The notes under the pieces were generated by a model. It was not told the DNA's origin and did not search any database. It was given only the letters and a program-made list of their open reading frames with translations. From assembly GCF_006345805.1 (NCBI RefSeq), contig NC_042997.1:202244001-202308000 (forward strand): a stretch of 64,000 nucleotides of DNA, given 5' to 3'. The translations under genes and the position numbers were made by a program. This DNA is from Octopus sinensis. Taxonomy: Eukaryota. Shown in pieces: positions 3,224 through 62,380 of this stretch (position 1 is the first letter of the stretch; each line of letters starts with the position of its first letter).

Positions 3224-4344
3224 ACATAAACAAACTATAATGAAGATAGATAATGTCTGGTAAATTTGTTAACTTCTCAGTTTTTATTTAGGTTACTAAT
3301 AAAGCTTTTAGAAATGGATTTATGTTAGAGAAAGATTAACCAAATAAATATGGTAGTTGATATTTATTTCTTGTTATTTCACCGTCTTCATTTTACATCT
3401 GTTTCCATGCTGGTATGGGTAGGATAGTTCAACAGATCAGAGGACCATGTCTTGTACCAATGTCTCACTTTTGGCATACTTTCTACAGTTTCATGCCTTT
3501 CCTAACACTGTCCACTTCAAGAGTGTATTTTGTGCATATTTTTATGGCACCAGCATTATAGGCGTCACCTTGTCATCAGCAAGATTAATGAGCTCTCTCA
3601 AGCCCTGCATTGTCACTACTCAAATCAATTACCAGTCACTTACAGAGTGTACTAAGTACTTTTTGTGGCACCAGCATTGTAGGGGTCATCTTGCAGCCTG
3701 CAAAGTGAGAGAGAACCATGCTTTCCCATGATAAATGGAACAAGTTTATTGCTGTGAGAGGATAGTAGCAGAGAGAACAACAGGGAAACCTGTTGGAGTG
3801 GGAGTAATGGGGCAAGAAGTAGAAGAGTAATAATATCAAGGACTTTTGAGGGAGTGGGGTTACAAAGTGGTAATAGGGATGGGGAGAATTCAGTAGGTTG
3901 ACCCAGTGTTGGACTGGGTCAATCCAGTTTCCATGGTACCATGGGTTGCATGGTTTTTCACAGTATTCTTATTGAAGCTACACATGTGTTGTTGAAAGGG
4001 AGAATGTTAAGGAAGGGTGTAATAGGAAGGAAAGGAGAAACTAATGCCTGGGGATTGGTGTGAGAGAGTTATAGGGTGATTATAGAGTAGGATGCAGTGC
4101 AGTGTTGCCCCCATATTATATATAGGTGAAAAATGTGGTACATGAAAGAAAGTTAAAATGGAAGAGGATAACAGGGTCAGTGTGATAAGAGCAATGAGAA
4201 GGGTTGAGTAGGCAGAGAAGCTGTGCTACTCCATGTGAGTATAGGTGAGTAGAGTGGTACGTGGTGGAGAGAGAAACAAGATGATGATGAGGGGCCAGCA
4301 TATATCTTCAGGGCAACATTTTCACACTCCATATCCATCTAGAT

Positions 4345-9837: not shown

Positions 9838-9881
9838 ACACCTGATGAAGGCTGGAGGGTATATCAGCTGAAACGTTGTGT
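9838..9881 (+). ncRNA. Minimal type-I hammerhead ribozyme motif (intact core)
   Basis: ACAC-CTGATGA-A-GGCTG-GAGGGTATAT-CAGCT-GAAA-CGTT-GTGT: stem I ACAC/GTGT, 5-bp stem II, palindromic stem III ACGT, GUU triplet at 9875-9877. Confidence 0.8.
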
Positions 9882-23026: not shown

Positions 23027-23408
23027 GTGCCGGTGGCACGTAAGAGAACCATCCGAACGTGGATGTTGCCAGCGCTGCCCCAACTGGCCTCCGCGCCGGT
23101 GGCATGTAAAAAGCACCATCCGATTGTGGCCATTGCCAGCCTCGTCTGGCACCTGTGCGGGTGGCATGCAAAAAGCACCATCCGTCTGTGGCCATTTGCC
23201 AGCTCCGTCTGGCACCTGTGCGGGTGGCACGTAAAAAGCACCCACTACACTCTCGGAGTGGTTGGCATTAGGAAGGGCATCCAGCTGTAGAAACGCTGGC
23301 AGATCAGACTGGGCCTGGCGCAGCCTTCTGGCTTCCCAGACCCCAGTTGAACCGTCCAACCCATGCTAGCATGGAAAACAGACGTTAAACGATGATGATG
23401 ATGATGAT
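23027..23408 (+). mobile_element. RTE 3'-UTR fragment (family B), young, four tandem units
   Basis: GTGGCA(C/T)G(T/C)AAAAAGCACC units; CpG-rich; (GAT)n tail. Confidence 0.85.
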
Positions 23409-42450: not shown

Positions 42451-42772
42451 TGGCACCTGTGTCAGTGGCACATAAAAAACACCATCCGAGCGTGGCCGTC
42501 TGCCAGCCTCGTCTGGCACCTGTGTCGGTGGCACATAAAAAACACCATTCGAACGTGACCGTCTGCCAGCCTCGTCTGGCACCTGTGTCGGTGGCACATA
42601 AAATCACCCACTACACTCTCAGAGTGGTTGGCGTTAGGAAGGGCATCCAGCTGTAGAAACACTGCCAGATCTGACTGGCCTGGTGCAGCCTTCGGGCTTG
42701 CCAGACCCCAGTTCAACCGTCCAACCCATGCTAGCATGAAAAGCGGACGTTAAACGATGATGATGATGATGA
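42451..42772 (+). mobile_element. RTE 3'-UTR fragment (family B), young, three tandem units
   Basis: Near-identical ~63-bp units TGGCACCTGTGTC(A/G)GTGGCACATAAAA..CACC; (GAT)n tail. Confidence 0.85.
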
Positions 42773-60629: not shown

Positions 60630-60940
60630 AAACTGGCTCCTCTTTGTCAATTACAATGAGGGTTCCAATTGATCCAATCAATGGAACAGCCTGCTCATCA
60701 AATTCACATGCAAGTGGCTGAGCACTCCACAGACCCATGTACCCTTAACTTAGTTCTCAGGGAGATTCAGCATGACACAGAATGTGACAAGGCTTTTTGA
60801 ATTAAAGGTACAACTCATTTTTGCCAGCTGAGTAGACTGGATAGTACCTAAAGAACACATTGCACTGCCAGGAATTGAACCCACAACCTGATGGTCATGA
60901 TCGAAATACCCAAACCACTAAACCATGCATCTTCACATTA
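60630..60940 (-). mobile_element. tRNA-derived SINE sharing the family D 3' tail
   Basis: Minus: TGGTTTAGTGG...GGGTTCAATTCC head; tail GTCTGTGGAGTGCTCAGCCACTTGCATG..GAGCAGGCTGTTCC. Confidence 0.7.
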
Positions 60941-60959
60941 TGTCTATATATATATATAT

Positions 60960-61129
60960 ATCATCATCATCATCGTCGTCGTTTAACGTCCGTTCTCCAT
61001 GCTAGCATGGGTTGGACGGTTCGACCGGGGTTCTGGGAAGCCAGAAGGCTGCACCAGGCTCCAGTCTAATCTGGCAATGTTTCTACAGCTGGATGCCCTT
61101 CCTAACGCCAACCACTCCGTGAGTGTAGA

Positions 61130-61130
<1 letters not shown>
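60960..61130 (-). mobile_element. RTE 3'-UTR fragment (family B)
   Basis: (CAT)n tail plus conserved UTR end. Confidence 0.85.
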
Positions 61131-61168
<38 letters not shown>

Positions 61169-61329
61169 TGAGAAAGTTGGTGTGTGAAAGCACGTGGTTG
61201 AATATATAGAAAATAGTAAAAAGTGAAAAAACTACAGAAGGCTTGTTTTAAAAGGTTAAAAAATATATATTTGAGTCATTATGTCTGAAGAATGTTATAA
61301 ATTTTTTTCATACAATGACATAGTTTTTG

Positions 61330-61369
61330 AAGAAATGACCGGTTTCGCTTTCAGCTTTTCAAATTTCTT
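61330..61369 (-). ncRNA. Minimal type-I hammerhead ribozyme with U3-A8 core variant
   Basis: Minus: AAGAAAT-TTGAAAA-GCT-GAA-AGC-GAAA-CCG-GTC-ATTTCTT; perfect 7-bp stem I, 3-bp stem II, palindromic ACCGGT stem III, GUC triplet. Confidence 0.75.
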
Positions 61370-61752
61370 ACATCGTTATGTTTACAAAGAATATATATAT
61401 ATATATGCTGAGAAAGAGTGACAGGAGAGGATTATCAACAGCAGTAGATTGGTAAGATTTTTAGAGCAACACAGAAAATTCTGAGTTCAAATCCTACGAA
61501 GGTCATTAATTATCTTTGCCTTTCATAATAATATATCACAAATTTGTTACACTTAATCCATGTTCAGTTTATCACCAACACCTGACCCTTTCTTGAGCAC
61601 TCCATTCTGTTTGTTGCCAGCATTTGGCTTAGATCTTTGGTATCAGGATAAATTCCTGATGTCATCTTATCAATCTTGAAATTCCTGTGAAAAGGTCTCA
61701 GGTGCTGATCTTTTTTGGCAGACTAAAGTATACGAAAAAATAGGAAATGGTT

Positions 61753-62380
61753 TATTCTTTTATTTGTTTCAGTCGTTTGACTGCGACCATGCTGGAGCAC
61801 CACCTTTAGTCGAACAAATCAACCCCAGAACTTATTCTTTGTAAGCCTAGTGCTTATTCTATCAGTATCTTTTGCCAAACCGCTAAGTTATAAGGATATA
61901 AACACATCAACATCAGTTGTCAGGTGATGGTAGAGGGGCACAAACACAGAAACATATATATATATATATATATATATTTAATAATAAATATTAGGGAATA
62001 TGACTGCGACTCAAAAATTTGAAGATGTTAGCAGGCATGAAACGATCGTAGTGTGATATTAATTATATTTTTTTAATAATTTTGTTATATATTTAAATAA
62101 TATAAATTAATCATATGTATTGGCTTAAGTTTTTCGTTGTTTGATTTGCCTAATAGTGGTTTTGTCTCTAATTTAATATAATATATATATATATATTTAT
62201 ATATATAGCTATAGATATGATGGGCTTCTTTCAGTTTCCATCTACCAGATCCTCTCACAAGGTTTTGGCCAGCCCAAGGCTATAGTAGAAAACACTTGCC
62301 TAAGGTACCACGCAATGGGACTGAACCCGGAACCATGTGGTTGGTAAGCAATCTACTTATTACACAGCCGCTCCTGCGCC
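61753..62380 (-). mobile_element. SINE family A with a ~200-bp insertion in its (TA)n
   Basis: SINE halves 61753-61955 and 62215-62380. Confidence 0.8.
62019..62056 (+). ncRNA. Degenerate hammerhead-like motif
   Basis: TTGAAGA-TGTTAGCAGGCAT-GAAAC-GATC-GTA; palindromic stem III ACGATCGT; stem I partner missing. Confidence 0.45.

Follow-up and report, generated by a model that had tools for sequence, protein, structure and literature searches.

A U3-A8 minimal hammerhead motif in a truncated copy of a Penelope-like retroelement of Octopus sinensis

Background

Minimal hammerheads of the palindromic, dimer-type kind have been described in the pseudo-LTRs of Penelope retroelements (Cervera and De la Pena 2014, PMC4209133), where they display low cleavage even as dimers and include a U3-A8 variant with approximately 1,300 hits in the Cercyon elements of Schistosoma mansoni. 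The natural double change from the C3-G8 pair (described in PMC3884650) to U3-A8 has also been reported elsewhere, in hammerheads for which in vitro activity is stated (Perreault et al. 2011, PMC3088659). As for the elements themselves, Penelope copies are known to have inverted partners and a tail that is optional, a CX2-5CxxC linker occurs in both the Neptune and the Nematis clades, and an ORF1 separated by a frameshift is mentioned for some clades in the legend of Fig. 1 of the same work (Craig et al. 2021, PMC8557442). The Poseidon element PAc of the green anole, the single Penelope system to have been purified, uses two internal start sites which bound the tail; its hammerhead needs the protein for cleavage, and insertion proceeds without cleavage (Frangieh et al. 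2024, PMC11167929). Retrozymes, on the other hand, consist of tandem units that measure 170-400 bases and code for no protein (Cervera and De la Pena 2020, PMC7229834; bioRxiv 10.64898/2026.07.22.740005). These statements, and the comparisons made below, refer to the accessible portions of the cited works.

Here we analysed a 64,000-nucleotide stretch of the Octopus sinensis genome (hereafter the window) for which a preliminary description, made from the letters alone, had proposed a potentially functional, dimer-dependent hammerhead with a U3-A8 core. By the features tested, the motif most likely works like, and is, a minimal Penelope hammerhead residing in a dead copy. Given that U3-A8 hammerheads of Penelope pseudo-LTRs are already in print and that the window copy is probably a dead fragment, the motif by itself matters little. 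The family to which it belongs is nonetheless useful for studying the role of Penelope hammerheads, as it offers thousands of young copies and intact masters, with natural U3-A8, U3·G8 and C3-G8 cores available in one scaffold. No description of the hammerhead of this family was found in the literature, although subscription papers, repeat databases and the supplements of PMC7229834 and PMC4209133 might hold one; the same search returned no description of natural U3·G8 cores, for which subscription papers and repeat databases might again be the place.

Results and discussion

Anatomy of the motif

The type I minimal hammerhead motif spans positions 61330-61369 of the minus strand, as delimited by a descriptor match, hammerhead numbering, the predicted fold and covariation. 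Its stem I of 7 bp joins the 5' arm (61363-61369) to 61330-61336, with double changes across relatives in six of the seven pairs; it is followed by the core U3-U4-G5-A6-A7-A8-A9 (UUGAAAA, 61356-61362, with U3 at 61362 and A8 at 61357), by stem II with its loop (61347-61355) and then, in this order, by GAAA, the palindrome A15.1-CCGG-U16.1 (ACCGGU, 61338-61343) and GUC. The motif lies where the preliminary description had put it, and the cut predicted there between 61337 and 61336 likewise agrees with hammerhead numbering, which sets the scissile bond after C17 (61337), the base at which some insertions start (see below). Less general is the 3-bp stem II that it had drawn. This holds for the window copy through an A at 61349 (minus strand), a minority letter found in 2 of 148 aligned copies and in 3 among the first 100 listed matches of the exact core; contigs of two public runs carry the family letter instead, and the family form is a 2-bp stem closing a 5-nt loop.

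The sequence features of a type I hammerhead are present in the motif, namely the core C3/U3-U4-G5-A6-N7-G8/A8-A9, G12-A13-A14-A15.1, U16.1-H17 and the three-helix junction, together with G10.1-C11.1 and covarying stems I and II. A strict hammerhead descriptor gave a single match in the window and none in 300 simulated 64-kb windows, and an Rfam scan of the whole 64-kb window returned no family at gathering thresholds. Judged from its sequence, the motif is a genuine hammerhead-shaped RNA, its core swapped yet paired. We also agree with the earlier remark that searches for CUGANGA miss this core, a reminder that most hammerheads of a genome can escape searches relying on that string only.

The motif shares with the hammerheads of PMC4209133 the type I topology, the location in a pseudo-LTR, the palindromic loop III and an occurrence mostly as single truncated copies, with some inverted pairs. 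It differs from those described in the accessible part of that work in its longer stem I (7 bp versus 4-5), its shorter stem II (2 bp in the family versus 7-8) and in lacking an additional base between positions 9 and 10.1.

The insert and its copies

The motif is carried by a 5'-truncated pseudo-LTR without coding part, i.e. the 3'/5' untranslated repeat of a Penelope-like element, which homology delimits to 219 bases of the minus strand (61167-61385) and which shows a single difference with respect to close copies once their private changes are set aside. At its 3' end it abuts a tandem (TA)18 target tract (61131-61166) and beyond its truncated 5' end lies a further (TA)n target tract (61391-61406), so that the bounding of the insert by (TA)n on both sides was rightly described. 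Of the approximately 225 bp assigned earlier to the insert (61167-61391), the 219 bases at 61385-61167 are homologous to the element, but the five at the 5' junction (61390-61386) fall outside the limit of homology. Within the element part, 61167-61201 correspond to a 35-base optional tail, which yields the 'long' 3' end and in full copies lies 25-26 bases before the element's start codon; the neighbouring 61202-61208 hold a TATATAT belonging to the element itself, where the 'short' 3' end of many copies lies, and contig loose ends fall at 61202. None of the contigs of public runs spans the whole insert. Three other very high-copy repeats, with very high summed contig depth, flank it at 60700-60875, 60964-61130 and 61712-61930.

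The insert is by no means unique, as had been supposed. A DNA search of its own genome, which is large (2.72 billion bases) and AT-rich, retrieved 2,093 candidates, the best 40 of which, when scored, were 97-100% identical to it. The exact 26-mer core occurs 379 times and the family hammerhead pattern matches 1,940 times, both with 0 matches for the reversed-pattern control, placing the number of hammerhead copies of the family at 1,940 at least.

It could be argued that the window nevertheless holds a ribozyme insert peculiar to this locus, or else a retrozyme of small size and non-autonomous nature, which is functional where it stands. Every core base is kept in this copy, which has even gained the third stem II pair. 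Against this, some two thousand nearly identical copies exist, of which it is one, and it is simply a truncated version of an autonomous element; no second hammerhead unit exists beside it, either in the window or in the next 60 kb, none of the 34 long frames in the window contains a recognisable coding exon, and the insert folded alone does no better than shuffled sequences (z = -0.08). We regard this possibility as scarcely credible. With no second unit nearby, function at the window locus is unlikely, contrary to what was first proposed, and the truncated and partnerless copy is likely inert.

Conservation of the motif across the family

Stem covariation was assessed on a set of ten related rows of our own choosing. 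On these, 96% of the cells pair, versus 39-63% in slid controls, double changes appear in 8 of the 10 pairs and G-C is found at 10.1-11.1 in all ten rows. For variation at the subfamily level we relied on an unbiased subset of 73 copies that had been fetched without a hammerhead pattern, because the set behind our tree-based counts was partly picked by such patterns. In these 73 copies 1 of 33 constrained columns (core, stem and palindrome) varies, as compared with 4 of 7 free columns and 32 of 135 flanking ones (p = 0.006 and 0.002 for the two comparisons). The tree-based count, on the set partly chosen by hammerhead patterns, also gave fewer shared changes in the constrained columns (p = 0.003), but a shared-to-private ratio no lower in the hammerhead than in its flanks (p = 0.88).

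These data bear on the idea that the hammerhead is weakened or vestigial and has been retained for some role other than catalysis (RNA packaging or protein binding, for instance), or is merely carried along. Consistent with such decay, stem II has shrunk to 2 bp in the family and to 1 bp in some old copies, subfamilies C and D have a bulged U ahead of the core, and a U3·G8 subfamily is spreading; moreover, the flanks on the 3' side are as conserved as the motif or more so, with 19-24 changes in 40-base windows versus 33 in the hammerhead. Cleavage is dispensable for insertion in vitro (PMC11167929) and Naiad elements spread without canonical hammerheads (PMC8557442). What a vestige would not readily explain is that the letters of the catalytic core do not change whereas loop II and position 17 do, the latter being C, A or U and never G in 148 copies. 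Similarly, the sister family keeps the core on stems that are wholly different, i.e. replaced wholesale with their pairing maintained, and insertion junctions cluster weakly at the predicted cut. On this balance we find a vestigial hammerhead quite improbable, and favour a minimal hammerhead that still acts on the RNA of the family.

The 3-8 pair

To the preliminary description, U3-A8 was a compensatory double change of the tertiary C3-G8 pair. We searched 88 contigs encoding related reverse transcriptases (RTs) with positions 3 and 8 left free and the palindrome demanded. A sense-strand hammerhead was found in 30 of the 88, giving 35 matches, some of which are the two repeats of one element, and the 3-8 pair is Watson-Crick in all 35 (C-G 26, U-A 7, G-C 1 and A-U 1); the antisense strand yielded 6 matches, one of them with 3-8 unpaired. 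The rarer Watson-Crick swaps, G3-C8 and A3-U8, are those of loci L274 and L301, likewise beside related RTs.

Among outside relatives, the closest two (L225 and L230, at 43-45% protein identity) carry C3-G8 together with the same 2-bp stem II, a CCGG loop and a long stem I. In a quick RT tree comprising 35 of 35 rows, all of them unnamed, the five elements of the Octopus genome form one clade (SH-aLRT 100) beside four C3-G8 elements (88), and U3-A8 is scattered elsewhere. The change was likely directed from C-G to U-A. Sequence comparison across lineages thus presents U3-A8 as true compensatory covariation.

Within the family the pairing is not strictly Watson-Crick, which qualifies the earlier claim. 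A hand count of the first 100 listed copies gave U3-A8 in 89, U3·G8 in 9, G3·A8 in 2 and C3 in none; in the copies fetched without a hammerhead pattern, U-A accounts for 71 of 73 and U·G for the remaining 2. The U3·G8 subfamily has also spread. The accessible portion of PMC3088659 treats the same double change, though not in retroelement repeats, and leaves U3·G8 unmentioned.

Genome-wide, U3-A8 patterns have 5,523 matches (control 11) and the C3-G8 pattern 226 (control 120), a preponderance unlike that in the accessible part of PMC4209133, with the reservation that the patterns are not equivalent. Of the 5,523 U3-A8 matches, the first 100 listed most often have the form of a sister Penelope family (L163-L165 and L176-L179), whose U3-A8 hammerhead has a 3-bp stem I and a 4-bp stem II.

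The Penelope-like element carrying the family

Longer copies extend upstream into a frame encoding an RT followed by a C-terminal GIY-YIG endonuclease, a part that the window fragment lacks. Pfam recognised RVT_1 in the family protein (E 2.9e-7) and gave no match to GIY-YIG, which in the sister family scores 21.6, just under the cut-off of 22.6. Among 8,000 scored candidates 665 protein homologues were retrieved; the 120 listed contain RVT_1, GIY-YIG or two further shared Pfam domains, GIY-YIG being frequent. Ahead of the endonuclease the family has a C-x4-C-x2-C linker resembling the Neptune rows in the supplement of PMC8557442. With the Neptune clade it shares the C-terminal GIY-YIG domain, the CX2-5CxxC linker and a CCHH motif, and furthermore the (TA)n targets, 5' truncation, inverted partners and a tail of 30-40 bases (PMC8557442). 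From these protein and target features we classify the family as a young, high-copy, Neptune-like Penelope retroelement with RT and GIY-YIG; 'Neptune-like' refers here to the linker and the (TA)n targets, bearing in mind that Nematis has the linker too and that the rows of the RT tree are all unnamed. RT-endonucleases of the Penelope type were also seen in bacterial metagenome-assembled genomes and symbiont records (L305-L312; P0026, P0042, P0055, P0069, P0075 and P0082), which are likely host DNA binned as bacterial.

The structural traits expected of such elements, namely pseudo-LTRs arising from partial tandems, inverted 5' partners and the optional tail of 30-40 bases, are all present in the family. 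Locus L087 is a pLTR-ORF-pLTR copy with two hammerheads 3,995 bases apart around the coding part, and L081 (C1665:153500-163400) is a head-to-tail array with three hammerheads about 3.98 kb apart, belonging to the U3·G8 subfamily and having a pseudo-LTR of the sister family directly upstream; at a locus such as L081, two units could meet as a double hammerhead. By hand count, the first 100 listed copies include 21 divergent pairs within 5 kb (42 copies) and 0 pairs with a same-strand neighbour within 10 kb.

Inspection of the 3' ends of 128 copies distinguished 64 short and 52 long ends, 4 copies that continue into ORF1 and 8 others, the long end lying 42 bases beyond the short one (the 35-base tail plus TATATAT). 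A (TA)4+ tract follows 50 of the 52 long ends, and (TA) or (TC) repeats follow 57 of the 64 short ones. Both common 3' ends adjoin the element's own TATATAT, and the same two TA-bounded ends were seen in 13 displayed copies of the sister family, which has 57% protein identity.

In L087, ORF1 comprises 451 residues from its start codon, and its overlap with the RT frame, near 3657 on the minus strand, is in the -1 phase. An in-phase UUUUUUA slippery heptamer occurs at the ORF1/RT overlap in 6 of the 13 informative loci out of 15 (L087, L086, L225, L226, L230 and L233), and the overlap likely represents a programmed -1 frameshift.

Folding as monomer or dimer

The computed energies amount to +3.0 kcal/mol for the monomer hammerhead and -14.3 kcal/mol for the double hammerhead, which is the cofold minimum. 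In the monomer, stem III would consist of one pair closing four bases, i.e. it is not stable, and the palindrome, as predicted stem III between two units, permits the double hammerhead that characterizes minimal, dimer-type motifs. At the level of computed folds the dimer reading of the preliminary description was accordingly borne out. The double hammerhead, in this form or in a closely similar one that pairs position 17, is likewise the minimum for subfamilies A, B and D, for the sister family and for L225, and is not the cofold minimum for subfamily C. In its local context the pairing probability of stem I is only about 0.09.

An alternative is that, in the same element, a lone hammerhead unit is folded by the protein that the element encodes and cleaves without dimerization. 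The anole Poseidon hammerhead cleaves only with protein added, and endonuclease mutants still permit cleavage (PMC11167929); in addition, tandem copies are rare in the Octopus genome. A monomer, on the other hand, has no need of the perfect palindrome, which is kept in loop III of the family, of its sister family and of the nearest relatives outside. The search beside related RTs is no test of this point, since its descriptor demanded the palindrome. We consider single-unit cleavage unlikely, and continue with paired units as the preferred explanation.

Insertions starting at the predicted cut

If the family RNA were cut in vivo, some insertions might start exactly at the cut. In subfamily A, 9 matches have an element part starting at that base, which reduce to 6 events after dropping L318 as a local duplication and merging two inverted pairs into single events; the control site gave 2 matches, 1 being a true junction and 1 a one-base slip, which was dropped. 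The sister family has 4 matches at the cut, of which 3 are true junctions and 1 a dropped one-base slip, versus 5 at its control site, all of them one-base slips and hence 0 true junctions. Pooling both families, with one control site per family, the count is 9 versus 1 (binomial p = 0.011), or 7 versus 1 (p = 0.035) after removing two ambiguous inversions; the count of subfamily A alone gives p = 0.06. About 1 event would be expected for subfamily A from a truncation rate of 0.0035 per base, with copy number and pass rate estimated. Two of its six events could stem from microhomology in stem I or TA. Among unselected 5' ends between -60 and +92, 0 of 19 fall on the cut, a sample too small to reveal a six-fold peak. 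At L313/L314 the beginning of ORF1 directly abuts the cut position, as expected from a template jump at an RNA 5' end. Altogether, the excess of junctions is a weak genomic hint of in vivo cleavage by the family hammerhead. Nearly all copies read through the cut, which implies that the usual template is uncut or re-joined there. The hint from these junctions is the only fresh point; the U3-A8 core variant had already been published.

A proposed mechanism for the spread of the family

The account that we prefer, and hold to be reasonably probable, is that the motif is a minimal Penelope pseudo-LTR hammerhead which likely cuts the RNA of the family weakly, through units paired by ACCGGU, and whose copy in the window is likely inert. 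The identity of the element, its copy number, the anatomy and covariation of the hammerhead and the absence of a neighbouring unit are matters of observation. Upon these, rare head-to-tail master arrays with a unit of about 3.98 kb would be transcribed through two or more hammerheads, and two units would then associate into a double hammerhead and be cut after position 17. The RT-endonuclease would nick a (TA)n tract and reverse transcription would start within the RNA at either of the two UAUAUA tracts that bound the 35-base tail, pairing with the target likely helping. Synthesis would mostly stop early, at the window locus after 219 bases; most templates would be uncut or re-joined at the hammerhead, and a minority would end at the cut.

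The anole system offers partial parallels. PAc and the Octopus family share the two internal start sites bounding the tail and a hammerhead near the start codon, but the PAc starts are non-homologous to the cut DNA, whereas those of the Octopus family adjoin its own TATATA, matching the target (PMC11167929). The accessible part of that work reports no PAc reads ending at the hammerhead site, whereas in the Octopus family a few insertions start at the cut.

It is tempting to speculate further that the family preserves a fossil record of in vivo cutting by a Penelope hammerhead, a minority of insertions deriving from RNA whose 5' end lies at the cut, that priming relies on pairing between UAUAUA and (TA)n, and that the core drifted from C3-G8 to U3-A8 by way of a viable U3·G8 wobble. 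We put this combined proposal forward tentatively, as possible but doubtful. None of its three points was found in the literature, subscription papers and repeat databases excepted. The two TA-bounded start sites would provide a simple and testable account of microsatellite targeting.

Other hammerheads and repeats

Retrozyme-like hammerheads do occur in the same genome. A tandem family with units of about 359 bases and a canonical type I hammerhead has 684 genome matches (L108-L130, L161, L162 and L181-L210) and forms a true retrozyme-like family. Its cores, counted by hand in the first 100 listed, are U3·G8 in 49, U3-A8 in 35, C3-G8 in 12 and C3·A8 in 4; as G8 lies within a CpG in this family, some of the A8 copies may be decay. 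The ACCGGU palindrome is common to this tandem family and the Penelope families, and no sequence similarity was found between its unit and the pseudo-LTRs. The motif in the insert also shares with non-LTR retrozymes the type I hammerhead, the palindromic loop III and the residence in an animal genome (PMC7229834; bioRxiv 10.64898/2026.07.22.740005). Its identity as such a retrozyme was considered and rejected, the insert being a single fragment of a coding 3.98-kb unit and not a non-coding tandem of 170-400 bases.

The window contains a second hammerhead-like motif at 9838-9881 of the plus strand, with its core at 9842. It has a canonical C3-G8 pair, a 4-bp stem I, a bulged base before stem II and a palindromic loop III, and lies inside a repeat with 8,707 genome candidates; of seven further loci fetched, four retain it. 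It has the looks of a typical minimal hammerhead of the Penelope kind, and no RT linked to it was seen. Finally, related tandem repeats of 63-66 bases occur in the window at 1892-2175, 23029-23242 and 42451-42603, probably as members of one dispersed repeat family.
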